A DNA stretch of 32,690 nt from a virus: UHGV virus genome UHGV-0100625; one strand, 5' to 3'. This document shows, in pieces, positions 882 to 32,567 of this stretch. Under the pieces are notes generated by a model, which saw nothing but the letters and a program-made list of their open reading frames with translations, searched no databases and was not told the origin of the DNA. The position numbers were made by a program, and so were the translations under genes. The first letter of the stretch is position 1, and the number at the start of each line of letters is the position of its first letter.

Positions 882-3026
882 TTAGGCTGGCCCGTAGGGG
901 TAGAAGGTTCCTCCGAAGACCGGGATCTGTATCATTCCCATGGCGTATTGCGTCACCTGGTCATCTTCGATGTCGGCAATCAGGAAGGAATAGTCGAAGT
1001 TAACGCCCGGTTTTTCTTCGGCAAGCCTGATTGGGTACACCGTCCCCGGAATGCCGGAGACGTCAACGCCCGTCAATTTGGCGTCCTGGTCAAAGTGAAC
1101 GTTGAGCCATACTTCCCCGCTGGTTTGGGTGAGCTGCACCCACGAGGACCCGGAACTGCCCCCCTGCGGGTATTTGCCGAGCAGATTCCCGTTCAGATAG
1201 AGCGCGCCGGGCTTGATTTGCGCCCCGGTGACGGCTCCCGCCGTATCTTTCTGCACCCGCACCTGGAAGCCGTATTCCGGCGCGGGCGTGGCTTCCCCCG
1301 TCGCCGTCGTGATGTGCTGGCTGATGGTAGGGGATTCCGGCTTGGGGTCAAAGACGTATTCCGTCGATTCCGGCGCGCCCTGCATGTTTTCCAGCGTGGA
1401 TGAAATGTTAGAAACAGAATTAACTTCATTTAGCGAAATCAAATCTTCCACCCCGAGTTGATTTGGTGAACCGTAGGACAACGTGACGACGTTGGTCTGC
1501 AGGTCGCGGTTCACCGTCTGGATCATGGTGTTGATGTTCTGCCATGCCGGGTTCCCTCCGAGAAGGGAGACGCGGCGGCCCATGTATTGCCGCGTTTGAG
1601 CATCCCCCAGTGCGACAAAGGATATAGAGCCGTCCCAGGGCAATTCCTGCATGGATTCCCACACCGTTTTGGCAATGTCCCCATAGGGCACACCTTCCGA
1701 CGGTTCCGGCGATTCCCCTTCTTCCGGCCCGTTGGAGGGCTGCTCCCCGTTGTAGATGCCGTCGATGGGGTAGCTCGCAAAGGGGCGGTCCATGGTGACC
1801 AGATCCACCGAGAATTCTTCCCAAAAGCAGGGCACACCCTGCAAGGTCCCCACATTCTTGAATTTCTCCCGCCACTTGGCAGGGGCGCTTTCCGGGATGG
1901 CGAGACGCTGCTTGATGGTGGCATTGCACCACTGCGGCCGGATGGATTTGGTATGAATTTGCCCATCCGTCAGTTCATAGCCCGTGGCCGTGGTATTATA
2001 GCCCTTCGGTTTGTCTTCCTCCGTTCCGTCCCAGGGCTTCCCGGTGATTTCCGGAGTTGGGTCATAGGCCGCAATGGCTCCAACGTCTTTCATCCATGGG
2101 AAATGATTTTTCCAGAAACTGTTGATCATGTCGTTCTGGTCAATCCGGGCCCCCGTCACTTTCATGCGCTGGTAGGACAGACTGCCGGCCCTGGTTCCCT
2201 GTACCGGTTGAGGATCTTCTACCGGTTCTCCTGTAGAATTAAACTTAGAATAATAGAAGTCTACAGACGTTCGGTAAACGATGGAATGCGGTAAGGTCGG
2301 GTCTCCGTCTTCCGGGTATTTGGACAGGTAAGAGACGCGATAGCCGTTGCTTCCGGTTGTTTCCGCGACAATCGCCACGCAGGGAGGCACGAGGTCGGCG
2401 CGTGGGACAAGGGAAACGTCCATGGCTTTAACATCGTTGGAGGGCTGCAATGGCAGGGAGATAGGCGTCAGGACGTCATAGTCCGTGATGATCAGCTTGG
2501 GCCGCGCGCCGCTGTAGTCGTAGTACGTGGCCATGCGGGGCGACCAGCGGCGGATGGATTGAAGAAGGTTGCCCAGCGTATCGCATGAGGCATTCCACGG
2601 GATCAGCATTTTGTCATCGCTGATCTGCAGCTCGTAGTCTGCGGGGTGGTGTTTGGCCAGGTTCAGCACCCGGGAGAGCGCGGAGGAAATGCTTATTTTA
2701 GGGATGATTTCATTCCCGCCGCCGGTGCTTTGCCACATCGAAAAGACCGGCTTCCATTCGGAATCCAGGGCAAAGCAGTTGTCCAGGTAATACCAGGGAT
2801 CGGAAAAGACGATTTTCCAGGCACGGGATGCGCCGCTGTAGGTCTTTTCGATGCTGGAAACGAGGCCGGCAAGAATGGTGTTCCCGTTTTGGGAGATGGT
2901 GACGGTATCGAATTGCTGGAAGGGCAAGACTTCCCCCAGCGTTCGGACGGGATAAACTGCGGTAATGGTGGAGGCGGCAAAACTTTGCTGGTCGTGGGTC
3001 AGGCTGGACGGCTTGAGAGCCAGCAA
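882..3026 (-). CDS. phage distal tail / putative receptor-binding (host-specificity-like) protein
   Basis: 714-aa beta-rich ORF with no enzymatic motifs. It is the last large structural ORF after the tape-measure-like gene. Assignment is by size and position only. Confidence 0.4.
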   Translation of the reverse strand: MLALKPSSLTHDQQSFAASTITAVYPVRTLGEVLPFQQFDTVTISQNGNTILAGLVSSIEKTYSGASRAWKIVFSDPWYYLDNCFALDSEWKPVFSMWQSTGGGNEIIPKISISSALSRVLNLAKHHPADYELQISDDKMLIPWNASCDTLGNLLQSIRRWSPRMATYYDYSGARPKLIITDYDVLTPISLPLQPSNDVKAMDVSLVPRADLVPPCVAIVAETTGSNGYRVSYLSKYPEDGDPTLPHSIVYRTSVDFYYSKFNSTGEPVEDPQPVQGTRAGSLSYQRMKVTGARIDQNDMINSFWKNHFPWMKDVGAIAAYDPTPEITGKPWDGTEEDKPKGYNTTATGYELTDGQIHTKSIRPQWCNATIKQRLAIPESAPAKWREKFKNVGTLQGVPCFWEEFSVDLVTMDRPFASYPIDGIYNGEQPSNGPEEGESPEPSEGVPYGDIAKTVWESMQELPWDGSISFVALGDAQTRQYMGRRVSLLGGNPAWQNINTMIQTVNRDLQTNVVTLSYGSPNQLGVEDLISLNEVNSVSNISSTLENMQGAPESTEYVFDPKPESPTISQHITTATGEATPAPEYGFQVRVQKDTAGAVTGAQIKPGALYLNGNLLGKYPQGGSSGSSWVQLTQTSGEVWLNVHFDQDAKLTGVDVSGIPGTVYPIRLAEEKPGVNFDYSFLIADIEDDQVTQYAMGMIQIPVFGGTFYPYGPA

Positions 3027-3132
3027 ATCATTGATGGTGATGTCGTGGTTCCTGCTGCTTGTAAAATGGTTGTGTTACGGAAGTAATGTTACCCTATCTT
3101 GTCGGGTTCGGAAACGTGTTTACGTGTCCTAG

Positions 3133-3540
3133 CTATTTATTTTTATTTAATAGAACATAGAAGGTATACCACATGATTCCACCAATTATTCCCCCGATAA
3201 TATAGCCTATTCCTACCATAGATAAACCTGATATCAAGCTTACTATTCCCATAATTACTCCACCACCAACTGACAATGTTGCTAAGAATATGAGGATTGT
3301 AGCAAGAACAGAATGACTTTCTTTATAAGCTGAAGCCTTTTTAGGGGAATGTATGATGCGACTATTTTCCCTCAATAATTGCAACGAAAATAGCAATTCC
3401 TCAGCCTTGAACCATTTCTTTGTCCCTTCTGCACAAATTAACGTGTCGGGAGAAATTATGTTTTTCTCAACTAATCTTCTTAACTCCGTGAGAGCAATCG
3501 GACCCTTCACAACATTTCCGAAAAAATAGTGATACCGCAT
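3133..3540 (-). CDS. DUF4339 (GYF-like) domain protein with two C-terminal TM helices (moron)
   Basis: N-terminus YHYFFGNVVKGPIALTELRRLVEKNIISPDTLICAEGTKKWFKAEEL fits the DUF4339 pattern. C-terminus is Gly-rich and hydrophobic (IIGGIIGGIMWYTFYVLL). GC here is about 35% against about 60% in flanks. Confidence 0.5.
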   Translation of the reverse strand: MRYHYFFGNVVKGPIALTELRRLVEKNIISPDTLICAEGTKKWFKAEELLFSLQLLRENSRIIHSPKKASAYKESHSVLATILIFLATLSVGGGVIMGIVSLISGLSMVGIGYIIGGIIGGIMWYTFYVLLNKNK

Positions 3541-9160: not shown

Positions 9161-11118
9161 GATTCTTCAATGGGTACGTTAATATCTTCAAAAGCCGCCG
9201 TTTCTTCGGTTTCAATGGCATTGACAGCCATTGCTTCCAATGCGTGATAGGTTGGATTGGTCAATCCATTGGAATAAAGGTGCCTGGTGCCTGTGCCCGC
9301 GTCGGCTGAAAGGGCATATGTTTTCTCATTGCGCGCGTCGATAATCAGGGTGCTTACGCCTGTTCCTGCCTCGAAAGCGATGAAGCCGCGGAGAGAAGCT
9401 ATCTTGAACAGGGTATTGGTACTGCCGCCTCCCAGCTCCATATAAAGAGCCGCCTTTTCCTCCCGCACTGCTGTACTCGGCAGCCCGCTCTGCATGTAAA
9501 TAAGCCTGTTCAGCCCGTTTGGCATCAGCTCATTATGGCCTACCGGAAGAAATACGGTTGTCGTCTTCACCTGCCAGTGTCCAACGGACGATACATAAAA
9601 GATTTCCCTTACTCTGATTTCATACCCCTTGCGGACAGTATCGTAAGGAGTATTGATGGTAACATCGATGATTTCCCCATGGTTGACGGCCAGCTCGTTC
9701 CCCGGAATCATAGAATAAGAATCCATCGTCAACCCGGTTCTGTTGGTTTTTGAGCCGCGGCCTATGCCAAAAGTAAATTTAGCGAAGGCTGTCGCGTTGA
9801 CCGCAAGGGAAAATCCGCACACGGAACTGTAATTAAATTGACCGTTAGGCCCTATCAGGGGAATAACCGCTGACCCGTACGCATTGGACCCGGCAGAAGC
9901 TGCGCCCACCGAAAAACGCTGCGTCAACCCGGCAAGAGTACCGTTGGAAGATTTAGAAATGGAACCCGCGACTGTGATCGAACTGGAATTAAGGTATATA
10001 GGCTGAACCAACGCTGATACAGCACCGGCCAATCCTAACGTATAAAAGCGATTAACCGCCCCCGTATCGGTCGGCGCACCGACAGCAAGAGGGATGTTGA
10101 CGCCTCCGTTGGCGTTGATGGCGCTTGAAAACGTGGATGTCCCCGCGCAGTTGAAGCTGGCGCCCTGGCTGATATTCAGGATTCCAGTCTCTACCATGAA
10201 TGTCCCTCTCAGCCATCCGCCTGACCGAAGATCGACCGACTGGTAAAACCGGGTGATCCCGTAAATCTGATTCAGCGTGCCGGCGCTTCCGCTGCCGTCC
10301 GGGTTGTTGACCACCAGAGGCCCGTTCACGGTAGCTGACTCCGCGGTCAGGGCTCCCCCGATATTCACATCGCCAACGTTGGATGTCAGAGTACCAGGAT
10401 CTCCCTTTTCCCCTTGAGGGCCCTGGGGCCCCACCGGACCTTCCGGCCCCTGCGGGCCTTCGGGACCTTGCGGGCCGGCCGGGCCCGTATCTCCCTTCGG
10501 TCCCTGCTCTCCCGTTTCGCCCTGCGGCCCCCGTTCCCCGGTTTCGCCGCGGGGGCCCTGCGGCCCTTCGGGGCCGGTTTCGCCCCGTTCTCCCTGCGGG
10601 CCTGCCGGCCCTTCGGGACCGACATCCCCGCGGGGAATGGTGAAGGAGAGCTTATAGGAGCCGGCAGCCTCCCCTTTGACGGCTTCCGCGGCGGCGGGCG
10701 TCCCCGGCTCCCCGGTGGTGACTTCGTCAACGGACAGGCTAAAATTCTCCGCGTACTTCTTGGCCTGTTCCGCGTACCAGGCGGCGCTGGACGCATTATC
10801 AAGCACTACCTGCACGCAGCCGCTTCCTTCCGGCAGCTGCACGACGACCGCGCCCGCCACAGCCTGCTGCTCGCCGGGCAAGTCCGGCGTTACCCGGCCC
10901 GAAGAAACAAAGCAACCGTAGAGAAGGGGGCTTTCTTCGCTGCCGTCGTCCATGAAGACGTCATAGGACCACATGCCCGCAGGCACCGACTCCCAGGAAA
11001 TCACGCCGTTTCCCTCGTCGTCTCGGGAAAATCCGAACTCCGTCACGCCCGTCTTGAGGCGGACGGCTCCGCGCAGGGTGACGCCGCTCATATCGACGGG
11101 GTCGCCCTGGAAATCCAC
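9157..11118 (-). CDS. collagen-like (G-X-Y repeat) fibre protein
   Basis: 653 aa with about 26 consecutive GXY triplets ([28 protein letters not shown]...) encoded around 10390-10640. These are flanked by an N-terminal domain and a large beta-rich C-terminal domain. Confidence 0.7.
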
Positions 11119-18854: not shown

Positions 18855-19169
18855 GTCGGCTCCCTGTAACGGGTCCCAGTATTCGTACCATTGGGGACGG
18901 TTGGGCTTCCGGCTTTGTTCCGTCAGGGCTCGTCGGGCGAGGTCCGTCTCCAGCTCCTTGATTCTGGTCTCCTGTTGGGCGACCAGCTTCGGGGCGTTGA
19001 GGATATTTTTTAATGCGTTGAACCTGATCTGGAAGCGAAAGAAAATGGTGGTTGCAGGGGAAAGAGTTGGACTTTCGACTCGGGGACAGGAACCCCGCGT
19101 GATACCGTTTCACCACCCTGCGATTGATTACATATCGTCATATACGGATATGTTGATATGTTGTCAACC

Positions 19170-20477
19170 CTAATATCTCCCGATGGCGCGTTTGGATGAC
19201 ACGGGGCGCGAGTACCAGGCTCCCAGCGTCCGGGTCAGTCCGCTGTGCCGGCGCGCGTGCCAGGCCATGACGAGGGCGTCGGCGCGGTCGGGAGAACGGA
19301 CGCCCCGTTTCGCCATGTCTTCCTTGCTTTCGATTTTGACGCGGCCGATCGCGTCGGTTTGAAGCCGGGGCGCTACCAGCTGCTCAATCGTGTCCTCGTC
19401 AATGTCGAGGATGAGTTCCTTTTCTTCGATGGCTCGGGCCAGGGCTCGCCACGCCTGGGCGCGGAGGTTGACAAAGGCCTGCGTATCGTCAGCCGGGAAG
19501 CCGCCCCGATAGGAATGCACCGGGAAGCCCTCGGCGCAGAAGTCGTCAATGATGGGGAGTCCAAGGCCGTCTCCGTCCGCGTAAATGCGGTCGGCGGGGA
19601 TGCCGAGTTCGGACGCCCGGCGGCGGAATCGGCCGCGCGCTCCTACGGTGTCCGGGTCCGACCAGTGGTCGGCGATGAAGAATCGGTTGCCCTGCCCGGC
19701 CGCGAAGACGTTTTCGTCGCCTCCGGCCGCGAAGTCGAAGCCTCCGCAGGTCTCCCCGGTGTCCCGGAAGGGAGGCGGGTTGTTGACCAGCTCCATGAGG
19801 GCGCGCCGAGGAATGACGGACTGACCGTCGAGGTCGGTGAATTCGCCGAGGATGGCGGAGCGGTAGAAGGAGGACTGTTCGCCGTATTCTTTTTTCAGGC
19901 GCTCGGCCTTGCCCGGGTCATTGATCTCAATGTGGGGGCAATCCTCGTATTTGACGCGGATCTTGTAGTAGAGGGATGAATTTTTGTGGAAGCAGTCGTA
20001 GAAGGTGCCGGAATCGGCTCCCGGCGACGAAGTGATGAACGCGTGGAAGAGCGTGCAGCGGGAAACGGCGGTGAAGATGGAGTCCGGGATGGTTTTGGCC
20101 TCGTCGAGGACGTAAAAGACGGGGTCCACGTCGGGCGAGATTTTCGGGTGCCATCCTTCCGCGCGGCCGGCGTTGTCGGTGGAGAAGCCCACGGCGAAGC
20201 CTCCCTCCGGCGTGCGGATTTCTGTTTTGTTGAAGGTCCAGCCATCAAAGAAGGGATTGTCCATGTAGCGGCGGAGCGCTGGAAAGAGCTGCTTTTCCAC
20301 CTGCATCCACGACGACGACGTGACCGGCACCTGACCCCGCGGGAAGCAGGTAAGGAAGTACAGGATGGCCGGAGCGATGCAGTTGCTCGTCTTGCCGGAT
20401 CCGTTGGGAGCGACCAGAGCCACGCTTTTCCCTCCCAGGGTCAGCTTGCCGAGGGACAACGCCTTGATGGCCTCCAC
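19170..20477 (-). CDS. terminase large subunit
   Basis: Walker A LVAPNGSGKT, Walker B-like VLDEAK, C-terminal nuclease signature ...SPDRADALVMAW. The track start is GTG. Confidence 0.75.
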   Translation of the reverse strand: MEAIKALSLGKLTLGGKSVALVAPNGSGKTSNCIAPAILYFLTCFPRGQVPVTSSSWMQVEKQLFPALRRYMDNPFFDGWTFNKTEIRTPEGGFAVGFSTDNAGRAEGWHPKISPDVDPVFYVLDEAKTIPDSIFTAVSRCTLFHAFITSSPGADSGTFYDCFHKNSSLYYKIRVKYEDCPHIEINDPGKAERLKKEYGEQSSFYRSAILGEFTDLDGQSVIPRRALMELVNNPPPFRDTGETCGGFDFAAGGDENVFAAGQGNRFFIADHWSDPDTVGARGRFRRRASELGIPADRIYADGDGLGLPIIDDFCAEGFPVHSYRGGFPADDTQAFVNLRAQAWRALARAIEEKELILDIDEDTIEQLVAPRLQTDAIGRVKIESKEDMAKRGVRSPDRADALVMAWHARRHSGLTRTLGAWYSRPVSSKRAIGRY

Positions 20478-29241: not shown

Positions 29242-29517
29242 TCATAACTCGTTATTATTTTTAACCTTCGTCCTGGTGATTCTCGTCGTTCCTGATATAA
29301 AGAGTTCCTCGCCGTTTGGCTTAATAATCCGGTATCCATGCCTCTTTGATCTATCCACGCACTCGGAGTCGTTCGTTGAAAAATAATCGTCGAGAATACC
29401 TGGCTGTTCGATCTTAATAATCCAATCCTCATTTCCTTCTGAAATGTAGTCATGAGGACGTGGGTTACAGGCGCACAGAACAAGCCCGGACAAGACGAGG
29501 GCGACCAGCGCTTTCAC
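29242..29517 (-). CDS. secreted/lipoprotein (candidate superinfection-exclusion moron)
   Basis: MKALVALVLSGLVLCAC signal peptide with Cys. GTG start with strong SD GAAAGGAGG. GTGA overlap with the xis-like stop. Confidence 0.5.
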   Translation of the reverse strand: MKALVALVLSGLVLCACNPRPHDYISEGNEDWIIKIEQPGILDDYFSTNDSECVDRSKRHGYRIIKPNGEELFISGTTRITRTKVKNNNEL

Positions 29518-29729
29518 TTCTTGCCTCCTTTCTTCAAAAATTCTTGAGTTCTTTTCTCAAGCCATGCCGTTACATCGTCAAGTTTGTAACGCGGATTTGA
29601 TCCCTTCTTCCCCATCCCCAGGCCAAAATAGACGCGGGGGCAACCTTCCTTGTTGAATTGAACTAGCGTTCCCTTGCTAATTTTCAGGGCTTTGCGTAAT
29701 TCTTCGCTGGTAAGGTATATTGTCTTCAT
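29514..29729 (-). CDS. excisionase/AlpA-family DNA-binding protein
   Basis: LTSEELRKALKISKGTLVQFNKEGCPRVYFGL....RYKLDDVTAWLEKR matches the Xis/AlpA winged-helix pattern. Confidence 0.55.
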   Translation of the reverse strand: MKTIYLTSEELRKALKISKGTLVQFNKEGCPRVYFGLGMGKKGSNPRYKLDDVTAWLEKRTQEFLKKGGKK

Positions 29730-29800
29730 GTGTTTTTCTTGTTTATCTTTGATGTTAACGCTATTGCCTTTATTTCCGTTTAAGTCTATCCTCTGCGTTC

Positions 29801-30286
29801 ATGATTTTTTTCCAATACTTGGCAGAACTGCTTAAATTCGCTTGCAATTATGCAGGCATAATCTTTTCCGCAACAGGTGTTTATCTTTTCGCTCCTCAAA
29901 GCGTTCTTGAGGCCCTGCATATCAGCTATGCGGATCATGATTACCGCGATATTGCGGGGTACGTGTTCCTTTTTTCCGGATGCGCCCTGCTGGAAAGGGT
30001 TTGGAATATAATCAAATCCTCTTACGCCGAGGCAAAATCCCGTAAAAAGGTGATCAAGCGTCTCCATGCTCTCACTCCAAAAGAGAAAGATGTTCTTCTC
30101 AGATATATCTTCTTCGATACCCGCACACAGAGATTTGATGATAGGGATGGTATCGTAAATGGTCTGATAGCAGCCGGCATTCTTATTCGGCACTCCTTTT
30201 ATGGAAGCATTGTGACCGGGTTTGACGTCAACATCACCGATGTTGCCTGGGATTATCTCAAAAAGAATCCCCACTTGCTGAGCTAA
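29801..30286 (+). CDS. membrane protein, possibly SieB-like superinfection exclusion; mutually exclusive with the antisense ORF 29786..30295(-)
   Basis: 161-aa plus-strand ORF with two hydrophobic N-terminal segments and a soluble C-terminus. Purine-rich first codon positions. It would be divergent from xis. The fully overlapping minus-strand 169-aa ORF starts 3 nt after the RHH stop and has palindromic operators upstream, so the strand call is unresolved. Confidence 0.4.
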   Translation: MIFFQYLAELLKFACNYAGIIFSATGVYLFAPQSVLEALHISYADHDYRDIAGYVFLFSGCALLERVWNIIKSSYAEAKSRKKVIKRLHALTPKEKDVLLRYIFFDTRTQRFDDRDGIVNGLIAAGILIRHSFYGSIVTGFDVNITDVAWDYLKKNPHLLS

Positions 30287-30297
30287 GTAATCCATGT

Positions 30298-30534
30298 TTA
30301 TCGGTTGGCGGTTTCGGGGTTCTTTACAGGTGGTTCACCACCTATAGATAAAAAAACTCCCTTCTTTTTGATTCTCTTTTTTAGAGGTGGTTCACCACCC
30401 GCGAGTAAAAAAACTACTTGCCCGGAAACTGATCTTTGTTCTTTCCGCGCAATCAATTTTATTTGCTCAAATAAGTCAATAGGGAGGTTAATTGTTATTT
30501 GCTTTTTCTCGTATTTCTCGGGCGATGTTTTCAT
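30298..30534 (-). CDS. ribbon-helix-helix (CopG/Arc-like) regulator with repeat-encoded tail
   Basis: KKQITINLPIDLFEQIKLIARKEQRSVSGQVVFLL is an RHH motif. The C-terminal GGEPP repeats are encoded by the palindromic operator copies. ATG at 30534 checked. Confidence 0.45.
   Translation of the reverse strand: MKTSPEKYEKKQITINLPIDLFEQIKLIARKEQRSVSGQVVFLLAGGEPPLKKRIKKKGVFLSIGGEPPVKNPETANR
30328..30398. promoter_or_regulatory. operator-like palindromes GGTGGTTCACCACC x2 (30328-30341, 30385-30398), each within a ~33-bp direct repeat unit
   Basis: Exact 14-mer with perfect 6-bp arms. Both copies are followed by n5-6 TAAAAAAACT. The period is 57 bp. Confidence 0.45.
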
Positions 30535-30919
30535 AATCTTCGGGTGTAAGGATTACGTTTTGAGTTTGTTGAACTAAATAAGCGGTAATGATTTCAGTCA
30601 TCGTCATATTCAGTTCTTTTGCTCTCTTTTGAAATTTTCGGAAGAGGACGATGGGGATCCATACTGAAATCTGTTTTTTGTCTATCTTCCGTTGACTTGG
30701 CATGCGCTCAACATAATCGGTGGTTAACCACCAGTCAACACTATTTTTCATCTTTTTTACATTTTTTTCATCCAGCATCATTCCGGATCTCCTTCCTAAT
30801 TTTTTTTCATCATTAGAATTAAGCGCGTAATGTAGATAAGTAGACACATCTACATTGATATGCACACCTAAGGAATCTTTGATCGCCGAACGAGGAAACG
30901 AGGAGATTGACGAGTTCAT
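30488..30919 (-). CDS. ribbon-helix-helix regulator (C-terminal RHH; possibly a shorter product from the ATG at 30703)
   Basis: KKQISVWIPIVLFRKFQKRAKELNMTMTEIITAYL is an RHH motif. Palindrome copy 3 sits 16-29 nt upstream of the internal ATG at 30703. Confidence 0.45.
   Translation of the reverse strand: MNSSISSFPRSAIKDSLGVHINVDVSTYLHYALNSNDEKKLGRRSGMMLDEKNVKKMKNSVDWWLTTDYVERMPSQRKIDKKQISVWIPIVLFRKFQKRAKELNMTMTEIITAYLVQQTQNVILTPEDYENIAREIREKANNN
30719..30732. promoter_or_regulatory. operator-like perfect palindrome GGTGGTTAACCACC (third copy)
   Basis: Perfect 14-bp palindrome identical in its arms to the two copies at 30328 and 30385. Confidence 0.45.
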
Positions 30920-31062
30920 TTCTTCTTCTCATCCTTTTGAGTGATGTTTCGCAAGATCCTCTTTGTGGTTCGCCGGCAACCCTCCACAATGCCAAGGCCG
31001 AAACAAACGAACCCGAACATCACAGCCAGCAAGAAAAACACAAGCATCACGTTACCCGACAT
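30916..31062 (-). CDS. small membrane peptide (first gene of the leftward early operon)
   Basis: 47-aa ORF: MSGNVMLVFFLLAVMFGFVCFGLGIVEGCRRTTKRILRNITQKDEKKK. ATGA overlap with the downstream RHH ORF at 30919-30916. Below the track cutoff. Confidence 0.3.
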   Translation of the reverse strand: MSGNVMLVFFLLAVMFGFVCFGLGIVEGCRRTTKRILRNITQKDEKKK

Positions 31063-31127
31063 TGACGTAACCCTTTCTTGCTGAAAATTTATCTCCTAAT
31101 ACACTAATATTTAGTGCGTTATAATGC

Positions 31128-31141
31128 GGGGGGGGGGGGGG
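31128..31141. repeat. G14 homopolymeric tract (C14 on the minus strand)
   Basis: 14 consecutive G starting 2 nt after a perfect TATAAT (31120-31125). Intergenic. Confidence 0.9.
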
Positions 31142-31198
31142 AAATTTTTCCTGTTTTTTCATGAGATTTGAAGCCTTGTGGCTCCGTTAAGACGATTT

Positions 31199-31236
31199 GT
31201 CATGACTTTCGCGTTCAGAGGATGACAAGTCATGAC
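31199..31236. promoter_or_regulatory. two copies of the palindrome GTCATGAC (31199-31206, 31229-31236) within GTCATGACnTTC direct repeats
   Basis: Exact 8-bp palindromes 30 bp apart. TGACAAGTCA sits between them. Confidence 0.35.
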
Positions 31237-31329
31237 ATTCCCTCATTCGAGGTTCCAAGATTGACGACCGCCGAAAATGTGATATAAAAGTGCTTTCCTG
31301 AATAAGGATCCTTTCTATTCATTCTTTTT

Positions 31330-31362
31330 CCGCCTGCGTCGGGAGACGCGGGCGGTTTTTTT
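31330..31362 (+). terminator. strong rho-independent terminator (plus-strand orientation)
   Basis: CCGCCTGCGTC-GGGA-GACGCGGGCGG forms an 11-bp stem with one G-U pair, followed by TTTTTTT. It lies just 3' of the int stop on the opposite strand. Confidence 0.55.
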
Positions 31363-31370
31363 CGACGGGA

Positions 31371-32567
31371 TTACAAAATAATCTTGCTTGAGATTTCTTC
31401 CATGGCGTGAACCACATCCTGTGAATCAGGGCGGAAATAAACCCGCTCTATCTCTTCGGAATCATGCCCCACGATGAATCGGCACAAATCCGCAGGTACT
31501 CCAGCCAATCTTAAAATCGTTACTGCTGTGGCCCGCAAACTGTGAAAGCTTTTCTCGGATAGAACACGCTTATCACCTTTCGCTTTCATTCCATCCGAGG
31601 AAATGATGCCATGTTTTTTCAAAAGCCCTGTAAATTCGAGAGACAACTTGCTGGACTTCCCGCCCGCTTGAGCATGTTTCATTGCTGCCAATGGGAATAC
31701 AAATTCATTGATAGAATACTTTTCCCTTTCTTTCAGAATCTCTTTCAGAGGTCCAATGATGGGCTTGTTCATGCGCCGCTTGGTTTTCTGGGTAGTCATG
31801 GAGATCAGGCCGCCCTCCAGATTTACTTGATCCCATTTAAGCGTTGCAATATCTCCCAGCCTCTGGCCTCCGGTGTAAAGACAAACCCTTATCATGTCCG
31901 GCCATTCGTCCGGCAAAATCTCTACAAGCCTTTTGACTTCTTCTACAGTGAAAGCCCCCCGTTCCTGCTTATCAGCCTGTTTCTTTTTCTTGTCCAGCCT
32001 TGCCCCTCTAAAAGGATTTGAGCTAATCAATTCTTTTTCAACGGCCTGATTAAAAGCACATGATAGAGATTCAAGGTATCTGGATACTGTACCCGATGAA
32101 ACACGCTCCATTTCTACCTCGGAAAACTCCCTGACAACGTTTTTGTTCACAGACGAGATTGATTGTCCCCCATCATTTCCTAAAAAGGAAATAAACTGCT
32201 GGATTGCCTTTCGGTCCCGTTCATAGGCCTGAATCTTACCCGATCTTGATTGCAGCCATTCCTTCAAATAGGCGCCAACACTCACCACCTTTCTTCCAAG
32301 GCTGAATGACTGGATATCTCCCCCCGCTATCGCTTTAAGACGATTCGAGTCTACGAAGCCCGTCTTATATCCGTTTTCCAGTTCTTCAGCAATAAGGCGA
32401 GCCCTGGCTTCATTTTGAGACAGCAACGCTCTTTTATTGACGCCGGGAGGAATAACCTTTGGAACAACGTCAACGCGGGTTGTTTTTCTGATCTCTTTGC
32501 CGTCCAGGGTTCGGAAGACGGCAACCCATTTGTTATTTCTCTTGATGATTCCTGCCATGCTGTACAT
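31371..32567 (-). CDS. int: tyrosine recombinase / phage integrase
   Basis: 398 aa. C-terminal catalytic region HSLRATAVTILRLAGVPADLCRFIVGHDSEEIERVYFR carries the R...H-x-x-R...Y signature. The N-terminus has the SAM-like DNA-binding pattern. Confidence 0.9.
   Translation of the reverse strand: MYSMAGIIKRNNKWVAVFRTLDGKEIRKTTRVDVVPKVIPPGVNKRALLSQNEARARLIAEELENGYKTGFVDSNRLKAIAGGDIQSFSLGRKVVSVGAYLKEWLQSRSGKIQAYERDRKAIQQFISFLGNDGGQSISSVNKNVVREFSEVEMERVSSGTVSRYLESLSCAFNQAVEKELISSNPFRGARLDKKKKQADKQERGAFTVEEVKRLVEILPDEWPDMIRVCLYTGGQRLGDIATLKWDQVNLEGGLISMTTQKTKRRMNKPIIGPLKEILKEREKYSINEFVFPLAAMKHAQAGGKSSKLSLEFTGLLKKHGIISSDGMKAKGDKRVLSEKSFHSLRATAVTILRLAGVPADLCRFIVGHDSEEIERVYFRPDSQDVVHAMEEISSKIIL

Follow-up and report, generated by a model that had tools for sequence, protein, structure and literature searches.

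Three palindromes inside the reading frames of a two-gene RHH cassette are probable operators of a self-contained switch in temperate Akkermansia phages

In the 32,690-nt viral genome UHGV-0100625 (the window in what follows), an Akkermansia muciniphila prophage with 99.8% identity to phage DTMo-2021a, one 14-bp palindrome occurs three times among two overlapping genes for small ribbon-helix-helix (RHH) regulators, which raises the question of what these sites are for and which protein reads them. A first-pass annotation had suggested an operator set for the RHH proteins. The evidence assembled here indicates, with a probability of about 0.7, that the palindromes are the DNA operators of a self-contained regulatory cassette in temperate Akkermansia phages; this is very probably a familiar kind of self-regulating switch in an unusual layout, with all three sites inside open reading frames. 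No publication was found on how A. muciniphila prophages are regulated, and the 14-mers of these sites are absent from the literature searched. The sites, which have no strand of their own, are the following:

30719-30732, strandless: O3, the perfect palindrome GGTGGTTAACCACC, within the spacer of the RHH1 promoter
30386-30399, strandless: O2, GGTGGTTCACCACC (GGTGGTGAACCACC on the gene strand), at the end of the RHH2 core and 333 bp from O3
30329-30342, strandless: O1, the second downstream copy, 57 bp from O2

The sequence GGTGGTTMACCACC occurs without mismatch at 30329-30342, 30386-30399 and 30719-30732 and nowhere else in the window. With up to two mismatches, eight strand-matches are obtained against 0.26 expected, a number reached in 0 of 100 shuffles, and the sole further site, at 10302 with two mismatches, is at chance level. 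Each 14-bp site consists of two inverted 7-bp half-sites, GGTGGTN/NACCACC. The first-pass annotation had located copy 3 (O3) correctly and copies 1 and 2 (O1 and O2) 1 bp too low; the direct repeats of ~33 bp that it saw around copies 1 and 2 exist and are slightly longer, 39 nt (30320-30358 and 30377-30415, 79% identity, 57-nt spacing). Its reading of the coding content agrees with ours: copies 1 and 2 encode GGEPP on the minus strand in the 78-aa ORF 30298-30534, whereas copy 3 encodes WWLTT in the 143-aa ORF 30488-30919, its distance to the downstream internal ATG (30703) being 16-29 nt.

The sites accompany the RHH genes in related Akkermansia loci, 46 in number, which provide 25 distinct site sets. 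Relatives outside Akkermansia, sought with the aim of obtaining more site types, were not found, all loci from GTDB genomes (2) and metagenomes (22) being of the Akkermansia type; type-B RHH1 as a protein query gave one new relative, of type C. The palindromes and the two overlapping RHH genes move as one unit, in the order A-tract, -35, O3, -10, RHH1, RHH2, O2, O1 in gene orientation, while the flanking genes vary among the 46 loci. Relative to the RHH1 ATG the sites have fixed positions in these loci (-29, +304 and +361), O3 being at -29 in every type-A locus, and the O3-O2 spacing is 333 bp in all three site types, A, B and C. O2 and O1 are 57 bp apart in every type-A locus, compared with 71 bp in type B and 56 bp in type C; these distances are not whole helical turns and are inconsistent between types, so that simple same-face cooperativity is not indicated.

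The sequence of the sites changes in concert. Three lineages have three site sequences, GGTGGT..ACCACC, GGCGGTGAACCGCC and GGCGGACACCCGCC, and in each of them all three sites and both half-sites are altered together; the O3 replaced in this way reads TGCGGTTATACGCA in locus L017 and GGCGGACACCCGCA in locus L045. Site positions 3 and 12 pair as T:A six times and as C:G five times and never mismatch, and within type A variation is confined to the central 2 bp (TA, GA, GT or GC). O2 and O1 form conserved islands within otherwise neutrally evolving DNA. Both are kept where they are not read as GGEPP (the frameshifted L012 and L042), and O1 is kept even after a stop codon, in L017 and L045; one lineage, represented by L010 and L038, has a truncated RHH2, has lost O2 and O1 and carries two substitutions in O3. 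Joint change of three sites and of both half-sites fits a DNA-binding protein encoded by the cassette itself, and the proposal that the sites are one functional set tied to both RHH genes is strengthened by their constant positions in 46 loci and their concerted change in three lineages.

O3 and its surroundings comprise:

30710-30738, minus strand: sigma-70-type promoter, with -35 TTGACT (30738-30733), a 17-bp spacer starting with O3, and -10 TATGTT (30715-30710)
30744-30748, minus strand: A-tract just upstream of the -35, A5 here and A7 in types B and C
30488-30703, minus strand: RHH1 short form, 71 aa, from an invariant ATG 6 nt past the -10
30488-30919, minus strand: RHH1 long ORF, 143 aa, with a 72-aa N-terminal extension that contains O3 and the internal promoter
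30916-31062, minus strand: 48-aa hydrophobic ORF, whose stop overlaps the start of the 143-aa ORF (ATGA)

The arrangement TTGACT-17-TATGTT has 9 of 12 matches and is the only promoter-like match in the 2.1 kb from 29400 to 31500. It shows the features of the sigma-70 type, hexamers 16-18 bp apart and conserved critical positions: among 17 distinct variants, the first, second, fourth and fifth bases of the -35 (T, T, A, C) are present in all 17 and the third (G) in 16, the sixth being free, and in the -10 the second (A) and sixth (T) are present in all 17 and the third (T) in 15, the others being free. The promoter-critical bases are kept while the overlapping amino acids differ, as where VD becomes LY with the change from TTGACT to TTTACA. 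The A-tract resembles what we take to be the proximal subsite of an UP element. Since the -10 ends 6 nt ahead of the invariant ATG, a distance constant in length and variable in sequence, the mRNA of short RHH1 is probably leaderless. Because O3 lies inside the spacer of the promoter that would make short RHH1 and RHH2, a protein bound there would exclude RNA polymerase, and negative autoregulation would result. That copy 3 controls a stand-alone short RHH protein, as had been suggested, is supported by its filling a conserved promoter spacer directly upstream of the invariant internal ATG; the product, given as 69 aa, has in fact 71.

Across relatives, M73 of RHH1 is invariant and the C-terminal 71 aa are near-invariant, the substitutions in the short form falling mostly on third codon positions. 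RHH1 alone reaches no curated family threshold; it matches an Arc-like PHROG (7e-4), BrnA (0.013, a weak match) and, by BLASTP, the strand of RHH2 (1e-4), and its AF2 elements (E81-89, H90-102, H107-120) give a predicted strand-helix-helix plus an extra helix. In each lineage the long frame runs without a stop for 63-116 codons, whereas the other two frames have 4-11 stops per 216 nt. Dual coding and regulatory sequence, also part of the earlier proposal, therefore finds support at copy 3, over which the frame is stop-free in every lineage, as well as at copies 1 and 2, which are read as the RHH2 tail. The 72-aa extension carries an RHH-like strand-helix motif, VxVxVPxYLHYAL, which hhalign places in register with the strand-helix of RHH1 and RHH2, weakly (P = 0.03 and 0.07). 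A Foldseek search with the structural model gave no match, and the extension was not accepted as a second RHH repeat. As for the ORF preceding the long frame, locus L020 has a called gene of 46 aa similar to the 48-aa hydrophobic ORF. A G14 tract, a candidate for phase variation, lies at 31128-31141.

The other two sites belong to the second gene and are each preceded by a run of T:

30298-30534, minus strand: RHH2, 78 aa, with a ~45-aa RHH core and a 33-aa tail running through O2 and O1
30407-30413, minus strand: T7 at O2 (A7 on the plus strand), 7 nt upstream of the site in the direction of RHH transcription, with an in-frame U_UUU_UUA
30350-30356, minus strand: T7 at O1, 7 nt upstream of O1

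RHH2 overlaps the 3' end of RHH1 by 47 nt. Its membership in the RHH (MetJ/Arc/CopG) proteins by profile (beta-strand and two helices, the latter predicted at 19-32 and 36-44) is above the Pfam threshold, with 27.3 bits to RHH_5 against a cut-off of 26 (E = 3e-6). By sequence search, the PDB offers no useful relative, the best RHH match being MazE6 at E = 1.5, and PADLOC and NCBIfam give nothing more than a weak match to the RHH protein BrnA. The cassette does not look like a type II toxin-antitoxin system with an RHH antitoxin, as the partner of the RHH protein is a second RHH protein and no toxin family is found among the neighbours. The RHH2 core is under purifying selection, the nine codons between the sites are neutral, and the tail is without amino-acid constraint. 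T7 at O2 is invariant in all lineages though its codons (V/I-F-L) permit synonymous change; T7 at O1 is kept in types A and B, in L017 even past the RHH2 stop, and is replaced by A6T4 in type C. Among 2.9 million viral contigs, the unit of T7, seven nucleotides and site is found in nine cassette contigs only.

Two inverted 7-bp half-sites in three copies would suit the way in which RHH dimers bind, with a two-stranded ribbon placed in the major groove at repeated operator subsites, and the most likely binder of each 14-bp site is two RHH dimers, composed of RHH1, RHH2 or both. The closest parallels in architecture are omega of pSM19035 and Reg576 of p576, which are autoregulating RHH repressors whose operator is a pair of 7-bp motifs, each operator of Reg576 being bound cooperatively by two dimers (PMC6294495). 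The two inverted heptads of the Akkermansia palindrome are compared with them by architecture and not by sequence relationship, and they differ from those operators in lying inside reading frames and at the operon 3' end. Covariation of the beta-strand residues with the site type is not clean and does not single out the binder: in RHH1 the strand KKQISVWIP is shared by types A and B, type C having KKRVTFWVQ, whereas in RHH2 types A and C share QITIN and type B has QVSIN; neither protein tracks both variable site positions.

In genetic organization, the cassette recalls immI of phage P22 (Arc, Mnt, Pant, arc-ant), with which it shares two small RHH regulators in a temperate phage and an operator between the -35 and -10 of the promoter transcribing the RHH gene. 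As in P22, where a superinfection-exclusion gene adjoins the immI module, such a gene adjoins the module here, and in the close relative L005 an antirepressor gene (Bro-N/ANT) follows the cassette directly in the same orientation, as in arc-ant. Unlike in P22, where mnt is divergent, the Akkermansia RHH genes are co-directional and overlapping, a common 14-bp palindrome is present in three copies, of which two follow the genes, and the place of ant is taken in the window by sieB on the other strand. Homology to Arc or Mnt was not found, the Pfam Arc profile giving E = 0.19 and 12.1 bits against a cut-off of 20.4. The gene that follows the cassette in the window is:

29801-30286, plus strand: sieB, superinfection exclusion protein B, convergent with the RHH genes

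It matches Pfam PF14163 full-length (profile 7-147 of 147, E = 1.5e-19, 70.5 bits), while the minus-strand ORF 29786-30295, which the first-pass annotation took as possibly gated by copies 1 and 2, matches neither Pfam nor PHROGs and is an antisense shadow of sieB. Both frames are open in relatives, and the third-position excess in the codon-position test is slight; it is the Pfam match that decides for sieB, and not the palindromes, which had been offered as a guide to the real strand. The distance of the two copies from 30295, given as 33-103 nt, becomes 34-104 nt with the corrected coordinates. Although gating of that ORF is thereby abandoned, the gating idea survives in relatives, whose next co-directional gene begins 25-110 nt past copy 1. 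After the cassette comes sieB in the window, whereas relatives have an antirepressor, early genes or a lipoprotein-like ORF in this place, other following genes encoding small proteins without a family match. An arc-ant-type arrangement, RHH genes plus antirepressor, is seen in L005 and L046 (Bro-N and ANT, 8e-28 and 3e-27), where the antirepressor gene begins 5 nt after the RHH2 stop, and in L002 the RHH2 stop overlaps the start of the next gene. The idea that O1 or O2 contains a promoter serving the downstream genes was rejected as unsupported, since in the aligned relatives neither strand has a conserved -10 (A2/T6) beyond the sites.

What, then, would O2 and O1 do at 333 and 390 bp downstream of O3, at the operon 3' end and immediately ahead of the next gene module? 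On the operator model they would be auxiliary operators, looping with O3, blocking polymerases that leave the RHH operon, or both. Operators inside coding sequence are known: lac O2 (+401 in lacZ), gal OI (in galE) and the PurR site in purB act by looping, as in lac and gal, or by blocking elongation, as in purB; dual coding and regulatory sequence is uncommon and has precedents. As in these, the Akkermansia sites would be repressor sites within translated sequence, hundreds of bp away from the operator at the promoter; unlike these, which lie in the regulated structural gene, they lie in the tail of the regulator's own gene and are duplicated, each with a conserved one-sided T7. Looping to O3 around both RHH genes, with tighter autorepression as its sole effect, is a tentative reading that we consider possible and on the less likely side. 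It accounts for O2 and O1 having the same sequence as O3, for an O3-O2 distance of exactly 333 bp in all three types (the lac O1-O2 loop spans 401 bp) and for the keeping of two downstream copies even in type C, whose duplication seems to have arisen independently, its repeat unit continuing on the 3' side of the site (AATTAAC) and not on the 5' side. The 333 bp is dictated by coding length anyway, however, and neither the one-sided T7 nor the constant site position at the operon 3' end before the next module is explained by looping. The operator model alone also leaves the conserved T7 upstream of O2 and O1 unexplained, and here a refinement of it, not a replacement, is available, in which O2 and O1 with their T7 would be directional, repressor-dependent stop signals: a polymerase leaving the RHH operon would meet the bound protein with its RNA:DNA hybrid in or entering a U-rich stretch and be released, so that downstream antirepressor or early genes would be silent while the repressor operon is on. 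Roadblocking by DNA-bound repressors is established (PMC10310618; PMC4132739), and stop signals of this kind would explain why T7 is always on the upstream side of RHH transcription at a fixed 7 nt although the site is symmetric, and why it resists synonymous drift and is kept untranslated in L017. In addition, the terminator scan finds no intrinsic terminator after the RHH operon, and the next genes follow as closely as described for L002 and L005. The RNA 3' end of a stalled polymerase is ~14 nt before the obstacle, however, which puts the stall point at the first T of the tract, with the hybrid not yet U-rich, and O1 in type C has A6T4 only. A T-tract combined with a bound protein terminates yeast Pol I with Reb1; we know of no bacterial terminator made of a T-tract plus a repressor, and on balance this refinement is unlikely.

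Readings that place the function in RNA, or the binder outside the cassette, fare worse. As RNA the sites are self-complementary, with stems of 4-6 pairs and -6 to -12 kcal/mol, and an RNA-level role for O3, which would be transcribed within the long ORF, may count against the operator model. In one form of this view, O2 and O1 would also act as a dnaX-like -1 frameshift signal that yields tail-less RHH2 beside the full-length protein. The elements are there: a slippery U_UUU_UUA/G in the RHH2 frame, correctly framed at the O2 of each type and at the type-A O1 as well, a 6-nt spacer followed by a hairpin, a -1 frame that stops within 4-9 codons (in type A with TGG TGA inside the palindrome), and a T7 protected from synonymous change. 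The dnaX stimulator is nevertheless far stronger than these stems, the O3 palindrome has no slippery site, the unit of T7 and site is kept past the stop codon in L017, and an unconstrained tail gives no obvious benefit to two isoforms, which makes frameshifting very unlikely. Least probable of all is a function as RNA hairpins, for instance terminators or processing sites, in place of protein binding by the DNA, even though the palindromes are self-complementary with compensatory change at positions 3 and 12 and a 141-nt RNA across O2 and O1 folds with z = -2.9. On the gene strand the T-run precedes the hairpin by 7 nt, while on the other strand an A-run (A7) follows it; O1 and O2 were accordingly rejected as intrinsic terminators, the scan giving no match at either and the T-run being on the wrong side of the hairpin. 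Moreover, type A shows no variation at arm positions 6 and 9, which a hairpin would place at the edge of its loop, pair 3-12 has no G:U intermediates, O3 falls in a promoter spacer, and three separate hairpins would have no reason to acquire one new sequence. Rfam gives no family, with two chance-level snoRNA matches (E ~0.7-0.9). There is also hardly any likelihood that the sites are bound by a factor from outside the cassette, be it a host protein, the HTH_17 protein or the integrase. The link between the RHH proteins and the sites is itself one that we infer from sequence, and the imperfect covariation of beta-strand and site leaves some room for such a factor, but the sites co-vary with the cassette type while the flanking genes differ among loci, and the unit occurs nowhere else in viral contigs or in the window.

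To return to the operators of the cassette, it is conceivable, though we consider it quite unlikely, that two devices are combined in it: an operator-gated, leaderless, nested promoter at O3 and, at O2 and O1, either directional terminators made of T7, seven nucleotides and operator or dnaX-like frameshift sites. By the former, one gene would give two proteins: transcripts from upstream would yield the long one, with RHH in tandem (single-chain-like), and the short one would be a classical RHH monomer; in the terminator version of the latter, bound repressor would cut the repressor operon transcript off from the antirepressor or early genes. Nested in-frame isoforms are known from gene c of phage phiC31 and from Tnp/Inh of Tn5, and lambda cI is expressed leaderless from PRM. 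As in phiC31 and Tn5, a promoter internal to the ORF would give an N-terminally shorter protein with the same DNA-binding domain, and, as with cI, the start of the repressor mRNA is predicted at or beside the ATG. The Akkermansia isoforms differ from those of phiC31 and Tn5 in being predicted from an open frame and a conserved internal promoter, and this promoter differs from all three in having an operator in its own spacer. The two devices are not known to have been described together.

A. muciniphila is a prominent gut commensal and a probiotic candidate, and the cassette offers a compact, testable candidate switch with defined operators for its temperate phages. Its three natural specificity variants are material for swap experiments, and its promoter is a possible genetic tool in Verrucomicrobia. 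If the unit of T7, seven nucleotides and operator stops transcription only with repressor bound, it would add a bacterial way of insulating a repressor operon from its lytic or antirepressor neighbours.

The 14-bp palindrome GGTGGTTMACCACC is found by pattern search of the window exactly at 30329-30342 (O1), 30386-30399 (O2) and 30719-30732 (O3), so that the three palindromes of the first-pass annotation stand, its first two coordinates being 1 bp too low. With up to two mismatches, 8 strand-matches are counted in the window where 0.26 would be expected, a number that no shuffle reaches; beyond the three sites they include only a 2-mismatch occurrence at 10302, in line with chance. O1 and O2 are contained in a 39-nt direct repeat with a spacing of 57 nt. 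The sites accompany two ribbon-helix-helix (RHH) genes, RHH1 and RHH2, in a cassette that, judging from its sequence, is most likely an autoregulated operon. With Akkermansia phage DTMo-2021a, whose host is A. muciniphila and whose record is without annotation, the window shares 99.8% identity, and almost all window genes are on the minus strand:

31371-32567, minus strand, integrase
minus strand, 48-aa hydrophobic ORF
30488-30919, minus strand, 143-aa ORF (RHH1)
30298-30534, minus strand, 78-aa ORF (RHH2)
minus strand, HTH_17/excisionase-like gene
19049-19122, minus strand, tRNA-Arg (CCT), within the prophage, shortly after the terminase large-subunit gene (19170-20477) when read along the minus strand
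further window genes: RecT, exonuclease, methyltransferase, terminase

The ATG of the long RHH1 ORF overlaps the stop of the 48-aa ORF in the window (ATGA). Upstream of both lies a G14 homopolymer (31128-31141, C14 on the gene strand), which adjoins GCATTATAAC and whose length among otherwise close relatives is 8, 9, 10, 11, 12, 13, 14, 15 or 19 (for example, 14 in the window vs 12 in DTMo-2021a, and 13 in locus L019 vs 11 in L020); the tract may be phase-variable through strand slippage, within a promoter spacer, or the differences may be homopolymer assembly noise. Just downstream (gene orientation) of the C-tract and TATAAC, the inverted repeat CACTAAATATTAGTG (~31108-31122), with similar forms, GC.CTAAATATTAG.GC, in related loci, is a further candidate for protein binding. 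Just beyond the integrase stop (31371), at 31330-31355, T7 follows a G+C-rich hairpin of 11 bp on the plus strand, oriented to terminate rightward (plus-strand) transcripts, not int. Near it, TGTCATGACTT and AAGTCATGACA (31198-31208 and 31227-31237) form a perfect inverted repeat of 11 nt, which overlaps direct repeats GTCATGAC(T/A)TTC; a small plus-strand transcript, or sites bound by recombination proteins, may be located here.

From protein searches, and from scanning viral, genome and metagenome collections, 46 related loci were obtained, which carry 25 distinct site sets; all loci with an organism name are Akkermansia, the remainder being viral, metagenome and sequencing-run contigs. The sites are at –29, +304 and +361 from the RHH1 ATG in all lineages but two, while the neighbours vary, upstream (integrase, a T5orf172 gene, divergent ORFs, a long ORF with a weak peptidoglycan-binding match, among others) as well as downstream (including sieB, a lipoprotein-like ORF, a Bro-N/ANT antirepressor and several small ORFs without family match), and therefore the three sites move jointly with the promoter and both RHH genes, as one cassette. 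The O3-O2 distance is 333 bp in all site-sequence lineages (types A, B and C), and the O2-O1 distance is 57, 71 and 56 bp, respectively. In type A, to which the window belongs, the sites read GGTGGT-NN-ACCACC with TA, GA, GT or GC centres; in type B (L017, L018) they are GGCGGTGAACCGCA and GGCGGTGAACCGCC, with TGCGGTTATACGCA at the O3 position; in type C (L045), GGCGGACACCCGCC or GGCGGACACCCGCA occupies all three positions. The 3:12 position pair is T:A in six distinct sites and C:G in five, and never a mismatch. The appearance of the same new sequence at three sites, in both half-sites, is as co-evolution with one DNA-binding protein predicts, whereas palindromes acting as independent RNA hairpins would not be expected to change to one shared new sequence. 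Conserved positions and concerted change thus support well the operator interpretation already proposed for the sites, and the comparison shows three co-evolving predicted operators, one in a conserved promoter spacer and two at the operon 3' end. Nor is the 14-mer a widespread repeat in viral contigs: among 2.9 million of them the unit T7-N7-GGTGGTGAACCACCT is confined to the nine cassette contigs, each with two copies 57 bp apart.

As for the candidate binders, RHH2 is above the Pfam RHH_5 threshold and its core (codons 17-40) is under purifying selection, while the C-terminal half of the 143-aa ORF has Arc-like and BrnA-like matches, is predicted by AlphaFold to form strand-helix-helix plus one further helix, and has a strand resembling that of RHH2. 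Types A and B share one RHH1 strand and type C has another, a difference that matches site position 6; in RHH2 it is type B alone whose strand differs. In the sole lineage with a truncated RHH2 (L010, L038), O2 and O1 are gone and O3 carries two substitutions. A hetero-oligomer of the RHH proteins is a possible binder. RHH2 starts 47 nt inside the RHH1 3' end in another frame (30488-30534, a stretch coding in two frames), an overlap conserved in all three types.

A promoter scan of 29400-31500 returned one sigma-70-like site, on the minus strand, with TTGACT (30738-30733), a 17-nt spacer starting with O3, and TATGTT (30715-30710); an A-tract flanks the –35 on its upstream side. Base counts over 17 distinct upstream variants are T17 T17 G16 A17 C17 N at the –35 and N A17 T15 N N T17 at the –10, and the amino acids encoded over the hexamers vary freely (VD to LY where TTGACT becomes TTTACA; YV, HY, HS, HD, HN, HT or ED over the –10). 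A protein on O3 would fill the promoter spacer, the classical autorepression layout. From the –10 to the invariant ATG (M73 of the long ORF) there are 6 nt of variable sequence in which no Shine-Dalgarno motif was found, and we infer that the mRNA of the 71-aa RHH1 form is probably leaderless.

Downstream of M73, substitutions are almost only at third codon positions, and upstream they are even over the three positions, so that by substitution pattern alone the upstream part would look non-coding. Ahead of M73, however, every lineage keeps 63-116 codons of the RHH1 frame open, and in the last 216 nt most lineages have 0 stops in this frame vs 4-11 in the other two. The motif VxVxVPxYLHYAL of the extension is kept in all three types, AlphaFold models the extension as strand plus helix (E18-26, H27-44), and hhalign places it, weakly, in register with the strand-helix of RHH1 and RHH2 (P = 0.03 and 0.07). 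We conclude that the long frame appears to be translated and fast-evolving, and the earlier proposal was therefore right in giving O3 a coding (WWLTT) as well as a regulatory role; two products in the one frame, of 143 and 71 aa, are likely.

At the other end of the operon, neutral evolution marks the nine codons that separate O2 from O1, whereas the two T7-N7-site units hardly vary. Here DNA is conserved where the peptide varies: in L012 and L042 a T8 run and a flipped centre give RWFTT in place of GGEPP, in L017 and L045 the RHH2 stop falls between O2 and O1 and leaves O1 untranslated, and some relatives have lost one repeat. The GGEPP tail is thus read-through into regulatory DNA and not a peptide repeat with a function. 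In the L012/L042 lineage the downstream site is single and flipped, with the T8 run, and the RHH2 frame runs for 213 codons through the antisense strand of a convergent gene (2877-3302, minus strand) for a 141-aa protein with a weak YdaS/Cro-type HTH match (5e-4).

The T7 is at a fixed 7 nt from O2 and O1, always on the upstream side relative to RHH transcription, and synonymous alternatives to its codons (V/I-F-L) are never used; the exception is type C O1, with A6T4 instead and a repeat unit extending 3' of the site. The tract is a candidate release element for polymerases stalled at bound protein, or a bend aiding binding; a dnaX-like slippery site is a further candidate, as T7 lies in the reading frame that slippage requires and, within the palindrome, TGG TGA ends the –1 frame. 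Nothing similar to an intrinsic terminator was found at O1 or O2 by a terminator scan, their hairpins are weak (–6 to –12 kcal/mol), Rfam gave no match, and the aligned relatives show no conserved –10 after O1/O2 on either strand.

The first-pass annotation had tied O1 and O2 to the minus-strand ORF 29786-30295. This ORF has no family match and the overlapping plus-strand ORF 29801-30286 encodes full-length SieB (Pfam, 1.5e-19), of which it is the antisense shadow; the strand call follows from the Pfam match, as in a codon-position comparison with relatives both frames stay open without separation. In the window the two sites are consequently not upstream of a minus-strand gene, and that assignment was wrong: they sit where the 3' ends of RHH2 and sieB face each other. 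In the 71-bp gap (29730-29800) between the divergent sieB (plus) and HTH_17 gene (minus) there is TTGCCT-17-TATCCT, whose end is 8 nt from the sieB ATG, and the sieB leader may be very short or absent; a strict promoter scan gave no promoter for the HTH_17/early genes.

In L005 and L046 the next gene begins 5 nt after the RHH2 stop; that of L005, the one scanned, whose RHH1 is 100% identical to that of the window, encodes a Bro-N + ANT antirepressor (8e-28, 3e-27). In L002 a lipoprotein-like gene has a GTG start that overlaps the RHH2 stop, and other loci have small co-directional ORFs without family match 25-110 nt after O1. Unless something stopped it, transcription of the RHH operon would continue into these genes.

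Each 14-bp site would be bound by a pair of RHH dimers that recognise it as a pair of inverted heptads, in analogy to the heptad-type RHH operators of omega and Reg576 (PMC6294495). Binding at O3 would repress the promoter, and O2 and O1 could cooperate with O3 by looping and/or block read-through into the downstream module; roadblocking by DNA-bound repressors has been reviewed (PMC10310618, PMC4132739). The literature search found no paper containing the 14-mers, and the Akkermansia prophage papers found deal, to judge by titles and abstracts, with detection and induction. P22 Arc/Mnt-Pant-ant is close in function and layout; homology to P22 Arc/Mnt was not found when tested. The RHH operon followed by an antirepressor resembles P22 immI, where the order is Pant-arc-ant. 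Operators inside coding regions, as here, are those of lac O2, gal OI and purB, and the two features proposed for RHH1 have counterparts in the nested repressor isoforms of phiC31 c and Tn5 Inh and in the leaderless cI. The kind of system is known and the layout is a variant: the promoter, with its predicted operator, is nested within an open frame, and the downstream predicted operators are duplicated, have a directional T-tract, and lie in the tail of the regulator itself.
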